From positions 1 to 6,812 of IMG/VR virus record IMGVR_UViG_3300011982_000006: DNA of 6,812 bases; one strand, written 5' to 3'. Every line of letters begins with the position of its first letter. The stretch's first letter is position 1. Source of the DNA: a virus. Positions 967 through 6,812 of the stretch are shown here, in pieces. The notes below the pieces were generated by a model. That model searched no databases. It was given only the letters and a program-made list of their open reading frames with translations, and was not told the origin of the DNA. The translations under genes and the position numbers were made by a program.

Positions 967-2682
967 TTAATCAATTTTTCTAGAACCAAACACAATAGTA
1001 TTATTAAGCTTCTTACTCTTATTACGCTTATCAAGACGTTGTTTTTGTTGCTTAGAATAAGTATCGAAATAATCAGAGCAAAACAAACTATTTTCAAGCA
1101 CCTTATCATAATCAAGCCTACCATAAGTATAGAAGTCACCAAACCAAGCTACCTCATCAAAGAAAGATCGTACATAAGGATCAGACATATCAACCTTATA
1201 ATCACTTTCATGAAGATACAAAGGCATGTGTTCCGACATGAAAGGATAGGCACCAATCATAGCCTTTTGGAAATCAGTCTTTTCAACTATATCATTAAAC
1301 AACTTATAGAATTGTATTAATTGGTCAGACTTTCGTAAGACATCATACCTATCCAACATTGAGACATAGGCGTATATGGGATGTGAATAACGATAGTACT
1401 TGTTAAAGTCAAGCAATTTAGTAATGCGCCAAGCATGACGAGAACAATACCAATTTTGGTCGGTATCCATTTCCATAGAATGGTACTCATCAGAATGATA
1501 GTAAGCAAGCCAATTGCGGTATTTCATATTCGGAAACTTTCGCAGGTAATCCGTCTCCGATATTTCATAATCATTTAGATTTTGCCAAGAATTAGAGAAG
1601 TAAACAATACTCAATTCTAGATCTTGTTTCCAATCGTCGTAGTATCGGCCATAGAACGAATACAATTGTAATTTTGCATCAAAAGCCATGTCACTATAGC
1701 CTTTACACTTGCGGAAGATGGAATTGCACAAATCTGTGTTAAGTGGAACATCGTAGTGTTCAAATTGTCCCAATCGCTCGTTAAAGATTTCTTTACCAAC
1801 TCGGTAAGTTCCTCGATGGACATTTTCGAGTATTTGATCTCGTTCAGCTTTGAAACAACCGATAACTGGGCTTTTAGACTGAAGGTGGAACGGACGCGAA
1901 GACTTATATCCCAGAACTTGAGGTAAATCAAGATTGCCACTAACATATTCCGCAACATAGTAGGCTGTGTTGGCATCACATACTTTGATATAGTCTTGGG
2001 TAAGTGATATATTCGCAAATGGCCGAAAACGAAAACTATTGCGCTGTCCTGCAATTCTCTCGTGGTAACCCCACGATTGAACGACAATAGACGTAATTTC
2101 TCGGAGGATAACCGAGCTATCGAAGAATAGGATGCCGTGATAATGCGGACGATACGTTTGGGGGCCGTACTCGGAAGCAATGTAATAACGGATTGATTTT
2201 TCATTTCTTTCTATATTTAATTTGTTAATTCTAGCGCGAACACGCTTAAGGAAGTTTTGAATGTCTTTTTTACAGCATACAGCATAGGTATTTGACTTAT
2301 CCTCATTCTGAACAGGAGGCAAAAAGGTTTCAAAGTCAATGTTCCATTTACCTTTTACGTCATCGTAATAGTTCAGAGGACATGAATTGTACATTTGCTC
2401 AACGCGACCAATAGGACGAAGTTGGGGGCAATCATTATCATCTTGGAACAATTCCCAGCGAGGGACACTCTCATTATCATAGGTCAACGTGAACATAACG
2501 GAATACTTATGTTTAAGAATTTCCTCACGGACACGGCTAGATTGTTTGGAAGCAGCAGCATTGACACATGCTACACATTTACCGCAAGGAACAAACATAT
2601 CTTCACCAGTCCACTTATTACGAGTGAGAATAGGGGACATACATCCACCAAATATTTTAAGCTTATCAGCATCCATTAGCAC
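967..2682 (-). CDS. VP4: Replication initiator protein, HUH endonuclease superfamily (Microviridae VP4 / phiX A analogue)
   Basis: Track ORF of 571 aa. Rolling-circle Rep motifs: motif I FTLTY (aa 64-68); motif II HUH, RPHYHGILF (His180/His182, nt 2125..2145); motif III with two tyrosines three residues apart, AYYVAEYVSGN (Tyr242/Tyr246, nt 1945..1959), as in YVAKYVNK of phiX174 A. The N-terminal Cys cluster GGCMSPIL...VPCGKCVACV is typical of microvirus VP4. The codon at 2682 is GTG. The first ATG is at 2676, and another ATG is at 2640. Starts at 2682 or 2676 keep the conserved Cys before MSPI. Confidence 0.92.
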   Translation of the reverse strand: MLMDADKLKIFGGCMSPILTRNKWTGEDMFVPCGKCVACVNAAASKQSSRVREEILKHKYSVMFTLTYDNESVPRWELFQDDNDCPQLRPIGRVEQMYNSCPLNYYDDVKGKWNIDFETFLPPVQNEDKSNTYAVCCKKDIQNFLKRVRARINKLNIERNEKSIRYYIASEYGPQTYRPHYHGILFFDSSVILREITSIVVQSWGYHERIAGQRNSFRFRPFANISLTQDYIKVCDANTAYYVAEYVSGNLDLPQVLGYKSSRPFHLQSKSPVIGCFKAERDQILENVHRGTYRVGKEIFNERLGQFEHYDVPLNTDLCNSIFRKCKGYSDMAFDAKLQLYSFYGRYYDDWKQDLELSIVYFSNSWQNLNDYEISETDYLRKFPNMKYRNWLAYYHSDEYHSMEMDTDQNWYCSRHAWRITKLLDFNKYYRYSHPIYAYVSMLDRYDVLRKSDQLIQFYKLFNDIVEKTDFQKAMIGAYPFMSEHMPLYLHESDYKVDMSDPYVRSFFDEVAWFGDFYTYGRLDYDKVLENSLFCSDYFDTYSKQQKQRLDKRNKSKKLNNTIVFGSRKID

Positions 2683-2974
2683 GAACGAATTTCAAGATAC
2701 GAAGTTTAAAAATAATATCATCATACTCATCAACAACTTTAATAACGCCAAACACAACCAAAGCACGGACACAAGCCTCAATCTTGTCAAATATATCACA
2801 ATTTTCAAAAGAATACATAAGGCAGATATAAGAAGGCGTATCATACACACTTATATATTCGAAGTCTGCTTTAAGCAAATCCTCTAAGTATTCGCGGAAC
2901 AATAGATAATTGAATTTAGCCATATTATTATGATTATTATTGTAGAATGATGCAAAGATAAACAATTCAAACAT
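2666..2974 (-). CDS. Hypothetical protein, 102 aa (or 85 aa from the ATG at 2923), immediately upstream of and overlapping the Rep start
   Basis: Track ORF on the same strand as all the other genes. Its stop TGA (2668..2666) overlaps the Rep start by 11-17 nt (ATGGATGCTGA), an arrangement suggesting translational coupling. A TAtcTTTG box at 2960..2953 lies inside the 5' extension and favours the ATG at 2923 (MAKFNYLLFREYLEDLL...). I recognise no family. Confidence 0.6.
   Translation of the reverse strand: MFELFIFASFYNNNHNNMAKFNYLLFREYLEDLLKADFEYISVYDTPSYICLMYSFENCDIFDKIEACVRALVVFGVIKVVDEYDDIIFKLRILKFVRANGC
2953..2960 (-). promoter_or_regulatory. Candidate Bacteroidetes-type -7 promoter box TAnnTTTG (tatctttg)
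   Basis: Exact match to the published Bacteroides -7 consensus TAnnTTTG, 29 nt upstream of the ATG at 2923. No well-spaced -33 TTTG was seen. The - strand here is T/G-rich, so chance matches are likely. Confidence 0.2.
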
Positions 2975-3045
2975 AATGCCAATTATGTAAATGAAATTTA
3001 TCTAAATTATTTAACACACATTATCAATCCCACCCACCTTTTTAA

Positions 3046-3053
3046 CAAAAATA
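3046..3053 (-). promoter_or_regulatory. Candidate -7 promoter box TAnnTTTG (tatttttg) upstream of the 102-aa ORF / Rep gene pair
   Basis: Exact TAnnTTTG on the - strand within the T/G-rich tract between the structured module and the 102-aa ORF. This is a motif match only. Confidence 0.2.
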
Positions 3054-3148
3054 CAAAATAACCCAAAAACAACAATAAGTAAAACATAACAATAAAACAA
3101 TAACAATAAGAAACACAAGACATTATTAATAAATACTCTGTGTTGAGG

Positions 3149-3157
3149 GCTCTTTAT
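3149..3157. repeat. Left arm of the 9-bp inverted repeat closing the structured module (gctctttat)
   Basis: It is the reverse complement of 3631..3639 and sits exactly at the switch from A/C-rich to GC-rich sequence. It extends to about 13 of 14 matches if one 1-nt indel is allowed (gctctttat-tatt versus gctctttatctatt). Confidence 0.6.
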
Positions 3158-3159
3158 TA

Positions 3160-3177
3160 TTACGCGCACGCGCGTAA
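3160..3177. repeat. Stem-loop: 7-bp stem ttacgcg/cgcgtaa, loop cacg
   Basis: Pairs 3160-3177 through 3166-3171 were verified base by base. The stem is GC-rich and is followed by a related cgcacgcgcacgc tract (3182..3194). Confidence 0.7.
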
Positions 3178-3217
3178 AGGTCGCACGCGCACGCTAATAA
3201 TATAGTATGCCACTACT

Positions 3218-3246
3218 GAAAAACTGCAATGTGTTGTCAGTTTTTC
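3218..3246. repeat. Stem-loop: 9-bp stem gaaaaactg/cagtttttc, 11-nt loop
   Basis: Perfect complementarity between 3218..3226 and 3238..3246, verified base by base. The A/T run is part of the stem, so this is not a canonical intrinsic terminator. Confidence 0.65.
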
Positions 3247-3266
3247 CAATAGTAAACAAGGAGATG

Positions 3267-3304
3267 GCAGAAGGCGGGGGCTTCTGCAAAGATATGCCTT
3301 GCAG
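3267..3304. repeat. Two overlapping, mutually exclusive stem-loops (3267..3287 and 3284..3304) sharing ctgc at 3284..3287
   Basis: Stem A is gcagaag (3267..3273) paired with cttctgc (3281..3287), 7 bp, loop gcggggg. Stem B is ctgcaaag (3284..3291) paired with ccttgcag (3297..3304), 8 positions with one A-C mismatch on the + strand that becomes a G-T/G-U wobble on the - strand. Confidence 0.6.
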
Positions 3305-3316
3305 CTTTCGTTACTA

Positions 3317-3335
3317 ATTGCTCGAGGATGCTCGC
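3317..3335. repeat. Direct repeat copy 1 (attgctcgaggatgctcgc); exact 10-mer core ggatgctcgc at 3326..3335
   Basis: It aligns to 3598..3618 with 17 matches, 2 mismatches and a 2-nt indel. The 10-nt core is identical. Confidence 0.5.
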
Positions 3336-3524
3336 TATTCATAATGTTTAAGGGGCGCATCCGTTTCACTCCTGCTAGTGCGCGCGCTAGCTCGTTCGCT
3401 CGTGCCTCGCTCGCTCGACACCGCTTTGCCTGCACTTCATTCGTACGCTCGTACCTCGCGCACTCATTACGCTTAGGCATCTGCGCACGGACTTCGCTAC
3501 GCTCCGTAATAAGAGGTCCTAGTC

Positions 3525-3550
3525 GGTATGGGGGCAAAGCCCCCTATACC
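3525..3550. repeat. Stem-loop: ggtatggggg / ccccc(t)atacc, 10 bp with one bulged T, loop caaag
   Basis: Pairs 3530-3544 through 3534-3540 and 3525-3550 through 3529-3546 were verified. T3545 is bulged. A second C5 run at 3549..3553 could pair with the G5 run instead. Confidence 0.7.
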
Positions 3551-3573
3551 CCCTTTGTGCTCACAACATTACG

Positions 3574-3593
3574 CATTGGGGCCCTACCCAATG
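3574..3593. repeat. Stem-loop: 7-bp stem cattggg/cccaatg, loop gcccta
   Basis: Perfect complementarity between 3574..3580 and 3587..3593, verified base by base. Confidence 0.7.
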
Positions 3594-3597
3594 CTTC

Positions 3598-3618
3598 ATT
3601 GTTCGCTTGGATGCTCGC
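3598..3618. repeat. Direct repeat copy 2 (attgttcgcttggatgctcgc); exact 10-mer core at 3609..3618
   Basis: See copy 1. Together the two copies bracket the most GC-rich roughly 260-nt core of the module. Confidence 0.5.
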
Positions 3619-3630
3619 AACAAACAATAG

Positions 3631-3639
3631 ATAAAGAGC
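3631..3639. repeat. Right arm of the 9-bp inverted repeat closing the structured module (ataaagagc)
   Basis: It is the reverse complement of 3149..3157 and sits at the opposite compositional boundary. Confidence 0.6.
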
Positions 3640-3680
3640 GAATAAGGAGAACTCATAAACAAATCAGAAAATTACAACAA

Positions 3681-3696
3681 CAAAAATACAAACATA
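3681..3696 (-). promoter_or_regulatory. Two adjacent candidate -7 promoter boxes TAnnTTTG (tatgtttg 3696..3689, tatttttg 3688..3681) pointing into the structured module
   Basis: Both are exact matches to the Bacteroides -7 consensus on the coding strand, about 40-55 nt upstream of the module boundary at 3639. A TTTG at 3709..3706 lies 17 nt upstream of the second box, whereas the published spacing is about 19-21 nt. This is a motif match only, in T/G-rich sequence. Confidence 0.25.
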
Positions 3697-3799
3697 CAGA
3701 TACAGCAAAAATGTAGAACGTTCCACAAACGAAGACCAACAAATAACGCCACGTATCACTACGCAGCGTTAAAATAGACTAAAATCAAACAAATTTGAA

Positions 3800-3988
3800 A
3801 TGAAAAAATTATATTTGCATCACAATCAAAATATTAACAATATGGAATATAACGAAATTTACTACAAAGAGAAAGCGAAATTGTTCAAGACAATACGCAT
3901 TATACTCATCTGTATAGCATTATCACCTATAGCATTAGGAATTATAATGTTTGGAATGATGTTTTTGCAAACACTTTTACAAAACTAA
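3800..3988 (+). CDS. Candidate 62-aa membrane protein encoded antisense to all the other genes
   Basis: Track ORF with an ATG start. A polar N-terminal half (MKKLYLHHNQNINNMEYNEIYYKEKAKLFKT) is followed by one clear transmembrane-length hydrophobic segment (IRIILICIALSPIALGIIMFGMMFLQTLL). The local composition departs from the A/C-rich tract upstream. Its stop TAA (3986..3988) overlaps the VP2 stop (3985..3987) convergently. It lies on the opposite strand, and I saw no promoter motif. Confidence 0.3.
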   Translation: MKKLYLHHNQNINNMEYNEIYYKEKAKLFKTIRIILICIALSPIALGIIMFGMMFLQTLLQN

Positions 3989-5340
3989 CGCCTTTGAAGA
4001 TAAGCATCTAAAGCTTCTGCAATAGCATCATCTGAATAATGTTTCAATTTTTCAACAAATTCAGCATCAGAATTGTATTCAAAACCTAATGTTTTAGCAA
4101 TTCGGCTCCAAATATAATCACCTTTTTGTAACAAGAATTGTTGCAGATTTTGAGGACGTTGCCTCTGCATAATAGCAGCTAAACGATCAACGCCACCAAA
4201 ATAATACTCAAACTCAGACAACTTAGTTTTCTGTGCTTCTGTTAATGTTTGTTGACCAAGCAACTCAGCATAACGTTGTTGTGTCTGAACATTCTGATTA
4301 TTCAACCTTGTTGCAGACTTATTTAAGTCGAATTGACTACCAAGCACACGAGTTTCAGCATTTATCTTTTCATACTCGGCACGAAGATTTACTAATTGCT
4401 GCTGCAATATCTGCAATTGTTCGGGCATAAGGTTTTCAAGATTATATTTCTTGGTAAGATACTCAATATTGAGATTTTTCTCCATAACCTTGCCGTTAAT
4501 AATATCTTGTGTAAGCTTATCGATAGTCTTAAATAACTGAACATTCTCACCACGCGCACGTTGTTCGGCTAAAGTAACAGGACGGCCAGAACTCTCGTCA
4601 ACCATGGGTACACCATTAGTATCGTAGGCTTGTAATTGCGACATAGCATTTTGAATTTCAGTTGCAAAAGCCGTAGCAGCGTCAACACGAGCAGCCTGTT
4701 TACTTTGTTCAAGACGGTTAAGCGTTTCTTGCGCTTGTGCGCCAGCCTTAGCACCTGTTGCAGCATTCGTAATTTGGTCAGCTGCTTTCTGATTACCAAA
4801 ATCATAATCGGCCTTTTCATAAGCAAGACCTTGAGCCATGTAATTACCGACCTGACTTAACGCATCAGCAGGACCTTCCAAAAGATTCTCACTAGTATTA
4901 TTAGCAGGCGCAGTTACCGAATTACCAAGATTGGTACTACTTGCTATATTAGCACTACTTGCAGCTGCTTGACCATTGTAAAGATAGGGGTTATAACCTG
5001 CAGCTTCTAAACGTTCACGAACGGCAGCCTCATTAGACCATGCACGATTTTCAGCATTAACCTTATCTTGATAAGCCATTTGTTGAGCATTAACCTTGTC
5101 TTGTTGCTCGACTTGCTTTTGCCACATTTCACGCTGAAAAGCTTGGTCACGCTTCTGTTTGGAAGAGCCTCCAAATAACTTCATTGCACCACCTACAATA
5201 GCAGCACCAGCACCAATAAGGGCGGGAATTATACTTAATTGAGTTGGATAAGTAGCTATCCACTCGGACAAATCATAAGGATACATAATAAACAGAATTA
5301 AGGCCCACCTGCAAACGACAGGCAGGCCAGTTAAAAGCAT
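3985..5340 (-). CDS. VP2: VP2-like minor capsid / DNA pilot protein (phiX H analogue), 451 aa
   Basis: Track ORF. It has a Gly/Ala-rich hydrophobic N-terminal segment (IIPALIGAGAAIVGGAMKLFGG), then FQREMWQKQ...RERLEAAGYNPYLY, which resembles the conserved (A)AG(L/Y)NP motif of microvirus VP2 proteins as I recall it. A long Q/A/N/E-rich helical, coiled-coil-like region follows. Its size and its position after the capsid block fit VP2. An alternative start is the ATG at 5286 (MYPYDLSEW...). Confidence 0.85.
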   Translation of the reverse strand: MLLTGLPVVCRWALILFIMYPYDLSEWIATYPTQLSIIPALIGAGAAIVGGAMKLFGGSSKQKRDQAFQREMWQKQVEQQDKVNAQQMAYQDKVNAENRAWSNEAAVRERLEAAGYNPYLYNGQAAASSANIASSTNLGNSVTAPANNTSENLLEGPADALSQVGNYMAQGLAYEKADYDFGNQKAADQITNAATGAKAGAQAQETLNRLEQSKQAARVDAATAFATEIQNAMSQLQAYDTNGVPMVDESSGRPVTLAEQRARGENVQLFKTIDKLTQDIINGKVMEKNLNIEYLTKKYNLENLMPEQLQILQQQLVNLRAEYEKINAETRVLGSQFDLNKSATRLNNQNVQTQQRYAELLGQQTLTEAQKTKLSEFEYYFGGVDRLAAIMQRQRPQNLQQFLLQKGDYIWSRIAKTLGFEYNSDAEFVEKLKHYSDDAIAEALDAYLQRR

Positions 5341-5936: not shown

Positions 5937-6812
5937 TCAAACACGAGGAAGACCATCAACAGACATATCACTTATTTTTGTAATGCCGAAATAACAGCCA
6001 CCAAACAATTGGTCAGTTACCTGTTTACCATTATAATTAACAGCAAAAACACTATCAACAACACGAGGCGATATCTTCAATTCATTAAGAGAAAAAGAAC
6101 CAGAGTAAAAACCATCTAAAGGTGCACGCATACGAGCAATAGTCCAAAAAGACAAAGCACCATCATAGCCAAATTGTCCGTGGTTAAGATCAATAGCAGT
6201 TTTGTATTCAGAGTAACGCAACTGCCAACCAAAAGGCCTATCACCACGAGCGTTAACCTCATCAATTCCATTACCAGAAGGATCACGCTGATGATCGATG
6301 ACATTATAATTCATCAAGGGCTGCATACCTAAGTCTTCAAACTCAGGAATAAAGAAGTCACCACGAGTAACCTTATGTACGAAAGGATCGACACGACTAG
6401 CATCATACTGCATCGCAGGAACAGCCGAATAAATACACATCAACACACCATGTTCTTTAGCGTCGAACGAAACACGGCCTTTACCTACACCAATAGACTT
6501 ACCGACAACTCTACCAAGATAACCAGCATCTGAAGAACCTTCATCGGTCGTACCACCTGTCTGTGTAACATCACCTGTCTCGAAATTACTATCGAAGCCA
6601 CCAAGATAATACACCTGCCCATCACGACCTTCAGAGGTTTTAACACCGAAGTGAGCCTCCATTTGCTCGGCATAGGTTTTACCTGCTCGCATAGTAACAG
6701 AAAGAAGTTTATCCAAAGCAAATGCAGCACGAACGGAAGAAACATCAATAGTTGAATAACTTCCTTCGAACTTAGCAGTAACAGTAGCAGACCGATTACC
6801 AGAATCGACACC
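5937..6812 (-). CDS. VP1: Major capsid protein, C-terminal part (6714..6812 duplicates 1..99); full protein on the circle is 1653 nt = 550 aa plus stop
   Basis: This is track ORF 5937..6716. Its first M is really an internal TTG (Leu), and the frame stays open to 6812. 876 nt plus 777 nt join in frame. It contains capsid-typical stretches GYLGRVVGKSIGVGKG and RPFGWQLRYSEYKT. The stop TGA is at 5939..5937. Confidence 0.93.
   Translation of the reverse strand, partial: GVDSGNRSATVTAKFEGSYSTIDVSSVRAAFALDKLLSVTMRAGKTYAEQMEAHFGVKTSEGRDGQVYYLGGFDSNFETGDVTQTGGTTDEGSSDAGYLGRVVGKSIGVGKGRVSFDAKEHGVLMCIYSAVPAMQYDASRVDPFVHKVTRGDFFIPEFEDLGMQPLMNYNVIDHQRDPSGNGIDEVNARGDRPFGWQLRYSEYKTAIDLNHGQFGYDGALSFWTIARMRAPLDGFYSGSFSLNELKISPRVVDSVFAVNYNGKQVTDQLFGGCYFGITKISDMSVDGLPRV
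6714..6812. repeat. Terminal direct repeat, copy 2 of 2 (identical to 1..99)
   Basis: Same 99-nt string as 1..99. Offset 6713 gives the circular genome length. Confidence 0.95.

Follow-up and report, generated by a model that had tools for sequence, protein, structure and literature searches.

The complementary-strand origins of Bullavirinae phages (G4, St-1, alpha3 and phiK) are non-coding, hairpin-rich stretches of about 140 nt on the packaged strand of a microvirus. We know of no account of how the second strand is started in ssDNA phages outside the phiX174/G4 group, nor of how a conjugatively transferred strand is converted to duplex in Bacteroidota. At the primase start site, the Bullavirinae origins carry mini-hairpins of the GCGNNAGC type (GCGAAAGC in G4 and GCGTTAGC in St-1 and alpha3), and ssiA of RSF1010 also has such a mini-hairpin (PMC13037366). 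The GCGNNAGC and GCGNAGC forms are extraordinarily stable as DNA, far less stable as RNA, and are poorly bound by SSB (PMC13037366). The single-strand origins (sso) of rolling-circle (RCR) plasmids (ssoA, ssoU, ssoT, ssoW as well as ssoL) and sso1 of ICEBs1 are orientation-specific, folded ssDNA, usually upstream of the double-strand origin (dso); they combine a short conserved sequence with variable structure, are exchanged as cassettes between replicons and are linked to host range, features that the element described here is proposed to share, and they serve conjugative elements too (PMC4595007; PMC5703833). Frpo/ssi promoters, which it would likewise resemble, are found close to oriT on the transferred strand; they work only when their ssDNA is folded and are able to prime the complementary strand (PMC11541004).

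The window, by which we mean the whole 6,812-nt stretch analysed, holds a circular microvirus genome of 6713 bp with a terminal direct repeat of 99 nt, and all of its genes lie on the minus strand.

967..2682, minus strand: Rep gene
3149..3639, minus strand: GC-rich non-coding block, a probable composite replication-control region on the gene/virion strand, recognised by G+C profile, fold z-scores and conservation
3985..5340, minus strand: pilot protein gene
spanning the ends of the stretch, minus strand: major capsid gene

We read the 5' part of this block as a portable single-strand initiation signal, that is, an sso/ssi-like complementary-strand origin just 5' of the putative Rep nick site, and put the probability of this reading at roughly 0.55. 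The element is longer, at about 240-400 nt, than the Bullavirinae origins, and it lies directly 5' of a putative Rep nick site, whereas those origins lie between capsid genes. Unlike them, it has a core common to plasmids and integrative elements, and its hosts are Bacteroidales. Both are nevertheless non-coding, hairpin-rich and on the packaged strand, and the proposal for each is that it keeps clear of SSB and attracts a priming enzyme of the host (PMC13037366). The homologous element of locus L002 has exactly the GCGTTAGC of St-1 and alpha3. Blastn of the block against 50,697 phage records, a check for homologues, matched gut and oral metagenomic microviruses only, with no Bullavirinae and no homology to G4, St-1 or alpha3.

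In 200-nt windows, the G+C content is 0.47-0.565 at 3201..3600, against 0.22-0.32 at 2901..3200 and 0.275-0.34 at 3601..4000. No conserved ORF spans the gap holding the block. Its 125-aa (minus strand) and 111-aa (plus strand) ORFs match no PHROG family, and both are disrupted by 1-nt indels in close relatives, leaving no sign of coding conservation. The minus (gene/virion) strand folds better than shuffled controls (z = -5.2 as RNA and -3.87 as DNA; 0 of 100 shuffles as good), and the corresponding values for the plus strand are -2.3 and -2.0. The first-pass annotation of this DNA had described a discrete GC-rich, hairpin-dense, non-coding block and had taken it for a folded nucleic-acid element, not a gene. 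The G+C profile, the folding and the lack of a conserved ORF bear out the former; the latter is supported by the strand-specific folding, the frame-breaking indels, compensatory changes and a mini-hairpin that covaries among 69 distinct homologues. Most of its stem-loops reappear in predicted folds, and relatives keep several of them (3574..3593; 3525..3550, the core hairpin; 3267..3287; 3218..3246). Its view of the block as one module has to be replaced, as the block is a composite of a core, a variable domain and a phiX174-like (+) origin motif.

Block and flanks recur together in independent assemblies (OR149004, L005, L094, L130, L142 and L114), which excludes a chimeric assembly. The block is 87% identical to OR149004, and the 1.75-kb aligned region around and including it is 76.6% identical. 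As the first reading had supposed, the block matches no known RNA family: a search of the window with the 4227 covariance models of Rfam gave nothing at E <= 1, and the element in 10 host loci had no Rfam match either. A tRNA-like look of GGGGGTATAG...ACC was rejected after ARAGORN, run on the window, found nothing at the element. RNAalifold on seven close relatives yielded few compensatory pairs, owing to their 86% identity, and its partner for the first G-run of the core differs from that in single-sequence folds; with the two disagreeing here, we claim no full secondary structure.

The 5' two-thirds of the block contains the following parts.

3573..3594, minus strand: hairpin P0, 5' of the core, GCATTGGG-TAGGGC-CCCAATGC, predicted in every fold
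3515..3553, minus strand: conserved 39-nt core, GGGGG-TATA-[GGGGGC-loop-GCCCCC]-ATA-[xCG-N2-3-AGx']-ACC
3553-3549, minus strand: G-run of the core
3548-3545, minus strand: TATA of the core
3544-3530, minus strand: core hairpin P2, GGGGGC-TTT-GCCCCC
3529-3527, minus strand: ATA of the core
3526-3518, minus strand: core mini-hairpin P3, CCGACTAGG
3517-3515, minus strand: ACC of the core
3345..3514, minus strand: variable GC-rich multi-hairpin domain, its 3' end formed by a C-run and TTAAACA (3355-3345)

The core was located in 17 viral, 17 genome and more than 120 metagenome contigs, and it shows almost no change across more than 30 diverged microviruses, some 90 non-viral contigs and seven plasmids from cultured Prevotella. 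When a 2.4-kb query was used, the core alone still matched the five most distant among the matching microvirus records. The element is better conserved than its flanks, and it keeps its position across microviruses that have no detectable nucleotide similarity in coding genes. A full-text search with the core sequence returned one irrelevant paper, and we found no paper or annotation for the module; the proposed portable single-strand initiation module would be previously undescribed. About 40 aquatic contigs that fit the search pattern have no P3 and were left out as a different family.

The outer pair x:x' of P3 is Watson-Crick in 68 of 69 distinct cores (36 G:C, 26 A:T and 6 C:G), no core has G:T, and 0 of 10000 permutations did as well, although kinship among the sequences inflates this covariation. 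P3 has the GCGNNAGC or GCGNAGC form family-wide; that of the window (CCGACTAGG) is a variant with a 5-nt loop. Across 30 family domains, mini-hairpin motifs number 55 on the element strand and 5 on the other strand, against a mean of 18 and a maximum of 30 in shuffles, counts that kinship likewise inflates. The window alone has a strict count of 1 against 2.1 expected, no more than chance would give. The core's two arms are separated by a spacer of 2 to 12 nt, and the loop sequence varies. In P0 (3574..3593), relatives show two compensatory pairs (CG to UA and AU to UA).

The variable domain, 117-241 nt with the same ends in 30 homologues, may be closed through the core. Its terminal C-run and TTAAACA could pair with the first G-run of the core, and many single-sequence folds close the domain by this G-run:C-run pairing; the first G-run and the distal C-run are both invariant, so that the pairing leaves no readable covariation, and it is impossible in L028-type elements, which have no 3' domain. 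The domain has a GNA-loop mini-hairpin, GCGTAGC, in the window, and the window's GTGAAAC mini-hairpin is replaced by GCGTAGC or GCGGAGC in relatives.

Around the block lie the following signals for transcription.

3744..3771, minus strand: terminator-like hairpin followed by a T-rich tail, lying between the end of the pilot-protein gene and the block
3681..3696, minus strand: two TAnnTTTG boxes (Bacteroidota -7 type) that point into the block
3046..3053, minus strand: promoter-type box TATTTTTG, lying downstream of the block and preceding the 102-aa ORF and Rep

The block might encode a structured non-coding RNA gene or domain of a new class, made from the gene strand and serving a shared purpose such as host manipulation or anti-defence. 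In AT-rich genomes, structured RNAs typically stand out as GC-rich islands. The minus strand folds strongly as RNA (see above), the 3' side has a hairpin and a T-run (3246..3218), and covariation does not separate an RNA from ssDNA of the same strand. The window copy could be transcribed, given its two TAnnTTTG boxes 136-144 nt upstream of the core. These boxes, to which the first-pass annotation had drawn attention, are present but are confined to the nearest relatives (L094 and L004) and missing from L001 and L005. Upstream of the core, at a distance of 10-134 nt, half of the 32 microviral loci (16) carry a terminator-like hairpin, and only 4 of the 32 have a TAnnTTTG box between hairpin and core; most microviral loci have a box of this type 200-430 nt 3' of the core. 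Among ten mobile-element loci inspected, nine show no such box in the 660 nt that precede the core on the element strand. Transcription of the element across the family is therefore unlikely. Moreover, the GCGNAGC and GCGNNAGC loops are far more stable as DNA (PMC13037366), no G:U occurs at the covarying pair in 69 cores, Rfam is silent, and ssDNA readily explains a strict orientation relative to relaxase genes. We thus regard the RNA reading, one of four roles suggested at the outset, as unlikely overall: it is conceivable for the clade of the window, which has upstream boxes, and is disfavoured family-wide.

The carriers of the core argue for single-stranded DNA, as all of them go through an ssDNA stage. 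In the annotated microvirus records inspected, the core lies on the gene/virion strand. Blastn of the window's block against PLSDB gave no match, because the mobile-element versions differ in the loop and in P3; a plasmid-type locus as query matched the seven Prevotella plasmids. Of 56 non-redundant non-viral loci, 55 carry the core upstream of a relaxase gene and on the strand opposite to it, no more than about 650 nt from where that gene begins. The estimated gene start is upstream of the core in 48 and about 200 nt downstream in 7, which we attribute to an over-extended N-terminus in the query. The relaxase loci fall into three groups (four locus types), namely MobV, MobA/VirD2 and a Bacteroidales family with PF03432-bearing homologues. 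Pfam and PDB sequence searches did not identify the proteins of L028, L038 and L079; a large-database search identified that of L079. Some core-bearing plasmids have Rep_3 initiators, a family that replicates by the theta mode, so transfer would be their sole ssDNA stage. The plasmid core is located in the mob-rep intergenic region, the expected place of oriT. By the general leading-region logic of conjugative plasmids, the core strand is predicted to be the T-strand transferred by conjugation (PMC11541004).

The same strand logic would fit a Frpo-like ssDNA promoter, from which host RNA polymerase expresses early genes off the incoming strand, priming being a by-product; Frpo/ssi elements in conjugative plasmid leading regions both transcribe and prime (PMC11541004). 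We consider this quite improbable. The core hairpin has no duplex mimic of TTGACA/TATAAT or of the Bacteroidota TTTG/TAnnTTTG, and its duplex TATAGGGGGC/GCCCCCATA holds no promoter hexamers (-35/-10 or -33/-7). In addition, all microvirus genes are sense on the packaged strand, so this strand cannot template them solely over a short element. The core thus differs from Frpo/ssi in lacking a promoter-mimicking duplex, and the element also differs in occurring in phages. A further possibility, again an unlikely one, is that the core is a universal Bacteroidales ssDNA 'entry signal' read by one host machine, or a new class of large structured mobile-element RNA. As an entry signal, it might be exploited alike by phages, plasmids and integrative elements, the incoming strand being shielded from host defences, and its fold might be an intramolecular G*G:C triplex of the two invariant G-runs and the C-run.

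Prophages offer a view of the element in the chromosome. Prevotella microvirus prophages exist, and one that bears the element is integrated beside rplU-rpmA in four assemblies. These prophages, the conservation of host-recognised sites across unrelated plasmids, and the plasmid core's place where oriT is expected could speak for a host-protein site in double-stranded DNA, such as a Xer/dif-like recombination or multimer-resolution site doubling as attP, or a site for an oriT accessory factor. However, the element is intact in the prophage, and the match to the free phage extends some 200 nt beyond the core, so the crossover was not in the core; an att site was sought in L030, L041, L138 and L139, which include no empty site to fix the junction. 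The arm spacer of 2 to 12 nt also disagrees with a Xer site, which has a fixed 6-8-bp central region and two arms of about 11 bp. Given these two results, the Xer-type attP proposed earlier finds no support in the structured block. The covariation of a 2-bp mini-hairpin and the 55-to-5 strand asymmetry point instead to single-strand folding, and a single sequence cannot act as the specific nicking target for a phage Rep and for three relaxase groups alike. A double-stranded site is accordingly very unlikely.

That the core has moved between unrelated replicons is clear. Together with the sharp changes in composition at the edges of the block and the 9-bp terminal inverted repeat of the window, this could suggest a selfish, non-autonomous insertion (a MITE or an IS200/IS605-type PATE) with no function for the phage, as the first-pass annotation had also considered. 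The window does have this inverted repeat, which had been thought to bound the block, but the 3' arm falls within a 7-nt insertion that is specific to the window and missing from the closest relatives, and we dropped the repeat as a boundary feature. Each genome has one copy of the element, its position is retained across very diverged microviruses, where it is more conserved than the flanks, and it keeps a strict placement with respect to relaxase genes. Among the relatives, none with an empty site was seen; what looks like a truncation in L004 is a contig end. Such an insertion is highly improbable.

The 3' third of the block contains a motif similar to the viral-strand origin of phiX174.

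3231..3262, minus strand: phiX174 viral-strand origin-like motif, CTCCTTG/TTTACTATTGGAAAAACTGACAAC (slash, putative nick), of the form CTTG/..AT-rich..CTGAC
3218..3246, minus strand: hairpin AAAAACTGaCA...TGcAGTTTTT, overlapping the 3' half of the motif

We verified the phiX174 origin as CAACTTG/ATATTAATAACACTATAGACCAC. The two have in common a C-rich run, CTTG, an AT-rich spacer and a GAC-containing 3' half, all on the viral strand, and L018 shares CTTGATAT exactly. By analogy, Rep would nick after G3257 (CTTG/T at 3260-3256). The identity is in short stretches only, the 3' half of the window motif is overlapped by the hairpin, and the motif is intergenic, whereas the phiX174 origin lies inside the Rep gene. 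The family consensus is C-rich-CTTG-(A/T)(C/T)..TAT..AAAACTGACA. A profile built from 10 loci found the motif in 18 loci at E <= 0.01, all microviral or microvirus-sized except the 13-kb contig L115, and in no relaxase-bearing locus at that threshold; its place is on the strand of the core, 161-408 nt to the 3' side. The motif thus tracks with the microviral Rep rather than with the core. The stem at 3218..3246 is replaced by GTGAC...GTCAC in L006 and L008 and by CTGAC...GTCAG in L001. So short a likeness (CTTG, AT-rich spacer, GAC) could alternatively reflect a promoter or a protein-binding site. For the CTTGACA present in some of the motifs, we rejected a sigma-70-type promoter, since no -10 is correctly spaced from it and promoters of the hosts are of the TAnnTTTG type. 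The candidate nick-site sequence contains CTCCTTGTTTAC.

On the single-strand origin reading, the block would be a replication-control region that works on the packaged strand in the form of folded single-stranded DNA. Its 5' two-thirds would consist of P0, the core and the variable GC-rich hairpin domain, and its 3' third of the phiX174-like nick site for phage Rep with the adjacent hairpin. When the ssDNA genome enters a Prevotella-type host, the stable hairpins would remain SSB-free and recruit a host priming enzyme, most likely a DnaG-type primase as at the phage G4 origin, with RNA polymerase as the alternative; from the primer, host polymerase would build the double-stranded replicative form. 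In the mobilizable plasmids and integrative elements of Prevotella, the core may do the same job in the recipient cell. A single-strand origin directly 5' of the double-strand origin would be exposed last in rolling-circle synthesis, and sso upstream of dso is the rule in RCR plasmids (PMC4595007). A complementary-strand origin or primase-loading site on packaged ssDNA was among the roles first suggested, and the mini-hairpins, strand specificity and covariation favour it; we infer the priming function from these observations.

Despite the likeness to sso, the element does not belong to the ssoA type. With up to 3 mismatches, the ssoA RSB (TTTATGCCGAGAAAA-like) has one chance-level match, in the capsid gene, and none in the block. 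The CS-6 hexamer TAGCGW (TAGCGT/A) is not in the window core, which has TACCGA; it is found in cores with a G:C P3 pair, and it is not conserved among cores because its position covaries. The host phylum of the sso systems also differs from that of the present element.

The core, 39 nt long and more conserved than neighbouring genes, is a candidate open to sequence searches, and it connects gut and oral microviruses with Prevotella plasmids and integrative elements. If its role is confirmed, it would show which strand is transferred, and with it the oriT side, in many elements now classed as non-mobilizable by existing tools. It would also be a host-range marker for uncultured microviruses and a functional part for Prevotella/Bacteroides vectors, the priming mechanism would become open to direct test, and phages and conjugative elements would be seen to swap replication cassettes.

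The block has several smaller features.

3609..3618, minus strand: iteron-like direct repeat GCGAGCATCC, copy 1
3326..3335, minus strand: iteron-like direct repeat GCGAGCATCC, copy 2
3268..3286, minus strand: hairpin CAGAAG-CCCCCGC-CTTCTG, its loop C-rich, immediately 5' of the origin-like motif
3158..3200, strand not given: pair of alternating purine-pyrimidine GC tracts, GCGTGCGCGTGCG ... ACGCGCGTGCGCGT

The repeat ggatgctcgc, noted earlier at 3326 and 3609, is real, and it occurs four times in L001 and L005, as three tandem copies and one distal copy. Compared by eye (L030, L044, L014, L018, L022 and L025), the counterparts of the 3268..3286 hairpin have different stems and similar loops (CCCCCGC, CCTCCGA and CCCTCCGTG). 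The GC tract pair is identical in the aligned L001, L005, L094 and L142 except for one loop base. Similar tract pairs adjoin the element in L007, and shorter ones, under the threshold of the tract search, can be seen by eye in L011 and L042.

We propose, at a probability of roughly 0.55, that the GC-rich, hairpin-dense block at 3149..3639 is the phage's replication-control region, in which a portable single-strand initiation module would be followed by the Rep nick site. The 6713-bp genome in the window is circular (1-99 are repeated at 6714-6812), and all of its genes except one small opposite-strand ORF candidate lie on the - strand. Judged by gene content it is a microvirus, since it encodes the following proteins, and, from what is established for the family, we take its packaged, mRNA-sense strand to be the - strand.

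967..2682, - strand: Rep (PHROG profile)
across the window ends, - strand: major capsid protein (PHROG profile)
3985..5340, - strand: DNA pilot protein, a 451-aa ORF (counterpart of the annotated pilot protein in relatives)

The first-pass annotation had described the block as an abrupt compositional switch, non-coding and densely folded, and these features were borne out. The G+C fraction is 0.47-0.565 at 3201..3600, compared with 0.22-0.32 at 2901..3200 and 0.275-0.34 at 3601..4000 (200-nt windows). A protein-coding reading is unsupported: neither the 125-aa (-) nor the 111-aa (+) ORF inside the block has a PHROG family, and single-base indels interrupt both in alignment with the closest relatives. 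Folding of the - strand gave z = -5.2 with RNA and -3.87 with DNA parameters, none of 100 dinucleotide shuffles being as good (+ strand, -2.3 and -2.0), and most of the hairpins listed earlier were seen again in the predicted folds. The 9-bp inverted repeat said to bound the block exists, yet a 7-nt insertion unique to the window contains its 3' arm, and we dropped the repeat as a feature. The block is not chimeric, because several independent assemblies have it with the same flanks.

A blastn search of the block against 50,697 phage records returned OR149004, from human saliva, as its one close relative (87% identity over 518 nt, versus 76.6% for the surrounding 1.75-kb aligned stretch, block included). 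The search also hit twelve distant microviruses, sampled from rodents, pigs and humans, in which only about 45 nt match the block, and with a 2.4-kb query this stretch is the sole part still aligning to the five most distant matching records. Where inspected records carry annotated flanking genes, it lies on the gene strand in the gap between the pilot-protein gene and a small ORF or Rep. Pattern scans with GGGGTATAGGGGG-N3-14-CCCCCATA matched 17 viral contigs, 17 bacterial genome contigs (mostly Prevotella or Prevotellaceae, up to 379 kb) and at least 120 metagenome contigs. About 40 aquatic contigs with the pattern and without the rest of the core were left out of the family; L046, L051, L059, L063 and some 35 further metagenome loci hold a separate aquatic element (CACCCCCAGAGGGAAGGGGGGTTATACGGGAGGGGGTATAGGGGGGACCCCCCATAtaagggg...), strongly conserved, that matches the pattern without having the mini-hairpin. 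The family's element is also present on seven complete plasmids from cultured Prevotella species, unannotated or under 'hypothetical protein' (PLSDB NZ_AP018051.1, NZ_CP072391.1, NZ_CP072337.1, NZ_CP072353.1, NZ_CP118017.1, NZ_CP118018.1 and NZ_CP072376.1). Rfam gave no match at the element in the window or in 10 host loci, and a full-text literature search with the core sequence did not find it. The contig of L004, a close relative, stops (6249..6279) right inside the core hairpin, without the remainder of the block; the GC-rich hairpins probably interrupted the assembly there, and interruptions of this kind would make short-read viromes undercount the element.

On the gene strand the core (3553..3515) reads GGGGG-TATA-[GGGGGC-loop-GCCCCC]-ATA-[x-CG-N2-3-AG-x']-ACC. 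The loop of its hairpin P2 varies in sequence and in length (2 to 12 nt), and in two core copies both P2 arms are longer in step. In the mini-hairpin, P3, the x:x' pair is G:C in 36 of 69 distinct cores, A:T in 26 and C:G in 6, with one exception and no G:T. These 68 Watson-Crick pairs were reached by none of 10000 permutations (mean 30), a count that is not a probability, as the core sequences are related. Because three pair types occupy one position of an otherwise invariant motif, the x:x' changes show clear covariation and a single strand that folds. This evidence of single-strand folding, the variable arm spacing and the intact element in a prophage beside rplU-rpmA in four assemblies all speak against a duplex recombination or accessory site such as Xer/dif, which we consider very unlikely.

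The GC-rich hairpin set 3' of the core spans 117-241 nt in 30 homologues, and its 3' end is marked by a C-run and then TAAA(C)A (3355..3345 in the window). Pairing of the first G-run with this terminal C-run closes the domain in many single-sequence folds. As both runs are invariant, this pairing lies beyond covariation testing, and RNAalifold on seven close relatives chose a different C-run as partner; the structure we claim from these models is therefore limited to P0 (the hairpin 5' of the core, 3573..3594), P2, P3 and local hairpins, and does not extend to a full fold. Within the clade, compensatory changes occur at two pairs of P0, in one internal hairpin and in the mini-hairpin GTGAAAC/GCGTAGC/GCGGAGC.

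Several repeats accompany the block. The direct repeat GCGAGCATCC flanks the structured domain in two copies (3609..3618 and 3326..3335), and the relatives L001 and L005 have three tandem copies and one distal; L002 has another repeat, CCCTTyATCCTrTATCA, at the same flanking positions, an iteron-like arrangement. A pair of alternating purine-pyrimidine GC tracts, GCGTGCGCGTGCG ... ACGCGCGTGCGCGT at 3158..3200, is kept in the window, L001, L005, L094 and L142, with a similar pair about 85-100 nt 5' of the core in L007 and shorter pairs, below threshold and seen by eye, by the element in L011 and L042. The tracts may be prone to form Z-DNA, serve as a site for a protein or fold into a hairpin rich in G:T pairs. 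Two microviruses carry tandem duplications inside the element, a 96-nt unit twice in L022 and a 98-nt unit with the origin-like motif twice in L025, and the region is therefore plastic.

P3 has the form GCGNNAGC, and the variable domain contains recurrent GCGNAGC motifs (GCGAAGC, GCGTAGC, GCGGAGC) and variants such as GTGAAAC. According to a 2026 review by the discoverers of these mini-hairpins, both forms are extraordinarily stable as DNA, far less stable as RNA and poorly bound by SSB; it places them where primase starts on the complementary-strand origins of the microviruses G4 (GCGAAAGC) and St-1/alpha3 (GCGTTAGC), and also in RSF1010 ssiA and N4 promoters (PMC13037366). The 30 family domains hold 55 such motifs on the element strand versus 5 on the other (shuffle control: mean 18, maximum 30); the window alone has a strict count of 1 and no enrichment. 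The element has no sequence homology to the G4 origin by blastn against the 50,697 phage records.

Transcription signals point the same way as the mini-hairpins and argue for DNA rather than RNA. In half of the non-redundant microviral loci (16 of 32), the core is preceded by a terminator-like hairpin whose T-run end lies 10-134 nt upstream; a Bacteroidota-type TAnnTTTG box lies between terminator region and core in only 4 of the 32, and in most it sits 200-430 nt downstream of the core, ahead of the next genes. In nine of ten mobile-element loci inspected, the 660 nt upstream of the core lack such a box on the element strand, and seven of these show an opposite-strand box 76-203 nt from it, consistent with a promoter of divergent mob genes. 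The window's clade is among the four, with two promoter-type boxes upstream of the core, and a structured RNA, which we regard as unlikely overall, is least improbable there. A single-stranded-DNA promoter would obey the same strand logic as a replication module; with a core that lacks any promoter mimic, it seems quite unlikely.

Further 3' in the block lie two features on the gene strand.

3286..3268, - strand: hairpin with a C-rich loop, just 5' of the origin-like motif
3262..3231, - strand: phiX174-like origin motif CTCCTTG/TTTACTATTGGAAAAACTGACAAC, 3' of the C-rich-loop hairpin

A profile built from ten loci (E <= 0.01) found this motif in 18 loci, on the same strand as the core and 161-408 nt 3' of it. 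Of these, 14 carry a detectable microviral Rep or capsid gene; a microvirus record and contigs of microvirus size account for three more, and the last is L115, a contig of 13 kb. At the same cut-off the motif was found in none of the relaxase-bearing loci. The phiX174 origin in NC_001422 reads CCCCCAACTTG/ATATTAATAACACTATAGACCAC, with the annotated origin at A4306. The family consensus keeps its order (C-rich run, CTTG, AT-rich spacer, GAC-containing 3' half) and locus L018 shares CTTGATAT with it, from which we infer a candidate Rep nick site. With the motif as nick site, the structured module would therefore lie directly 5' of the double-strand origin. In rolling-circle plasmids the single-strand origin is usually just 5' of the double-strand origin, a placement that keeps it double-stranded until leading-strand synthesis is nearly complete (PMC4595007, ICEBs1 paper).

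Among bacterial and metagenomic contigs with the core, its gene neighbours include a MobV relaxase (NCBIfam, above cutoff), a MobA/VirD2 relaxase adjoining a Rep_3 initiator, DnaG-like and P4-type primases, a DnaC/IstB-like loader, tyrosine integrases and a family of 450-600-aa proteins with an HxDEGH...NYHAH motif, whose 50%-identical homologues carry Pfam PF03432 (one is named 'mobilization protein' by NCBI). Of 56 non-redundant loci in which a relaxase homologue was present, 55 have the relaxase gene on the strand opposite to the core, an arrangement that holds across three relaxase groups (four locus types). The gene's estimated start is within about 650 nt of the core, upstream in 48 loci and about 200 nt downstream in 7, which we attribute to an over-extended N-terminus of the query. 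It is also seen in the complete plasmid pPME0001, where mbpA and a relaxase are followed by the element, on the opposite strand, and next by rep. In conjugation the transferred strand runs 5'->3' away from the relaxase side of oriT, and leading regions are so defined (PMC11541004); on that rule, with the relaxase opposite, the core would lie on the transferred strand. The core cannot be one specific nick sequence common to three relaxase groups and phage Rep. What its carriers have in common is that they arrive in a cell single-stranded and depend on the host for priming. In integrase/DnaC-type and MobV-type elements the structured domain is upstream of the core, whereas in microviruses it is downstream; at L028 (~2440..2770), and likewise in L035, L121 and L032, about seven GC-rich hairpins, their loops of GGTCAC or AGTCAC type, form an array over the 330 nt that precede the core.

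MOB-suite types all seven Prevotella plasmids as 'non-mobilizable', pPME0001 with its mbpA and relaxase nonetheless included, which suggests that current plasmid typing misses these relaxase families. A microvirus prophage with the element occupies ~1210..7900 of L030 (Prevotella sp. SGI.027), and also L041, L138 and L139, lying in these four assemblies between rplU-rpmA and a 565-aa gene. In L030, homology to the free phage PV067920 ends right after the origin-like motif (...AAAACTGACAGCACA), and 133 nt beyond that point, at the host gene stop codon, AAAACTGACAC recurs in inverted orientation; with no empty site, the att site cannot be fixed.

Of the four roles originally put forward, the complementary-strand origin is thus the one we favour, the Xer site and the RNA having lost ground, and a selfish insertion is unsupported and highly improbable. 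The initiation module would be a new sso/ssi-type element of Bacteroidales replicons. A primase-type mechanism is favoured for second-strand priming because the mini-hairpins are like those of the G4 group and because, in some carriers, the element adjoins a primase or helicase-loader gene of the carrier itself; in principle, priming by RNA polymerase is just as possible. Membership of the ssoA class is ruled out, as the RSB is absent and CS-6 is not conserved. The CS-6 consensus TAGCGW occurs at 3191..3196, 3332..3337 and 3494..3499 (-), three of the genome's four copies thus being in the block on the gene strand, with a genome-wide count not above chance.

Single-strand origins as such are familiar elements, of types that phages and plasmids are known to share. 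New here are the element family itself, which has no annotation and was found neither in Rfam nor in the literature searched, its host group, a core that is nearly identical across viruses, plasmids and integrative elements, its strict placement beside relaxase genes, and a candidate (+) origin for a large group of uncultured microviruses. Second-strand priming in non-model microviruses and Bacteroidota conjugative elements is now directly testable.

The small opposite-strand ORF (3800..3988, +, probably from ATG 3842) is hydrophobic and single-pass, convergent with the pilot-protein gene, and has a TATATTTG promoter-type box at 3811..3818. An antisense gene would be unusual in a microvirus. 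Similar ORFs for small membrane proteins, likewise on the opposite strand, are found at this position in L001, L004 and L005, and L044 has one at the equivalent place after its pilot gene.
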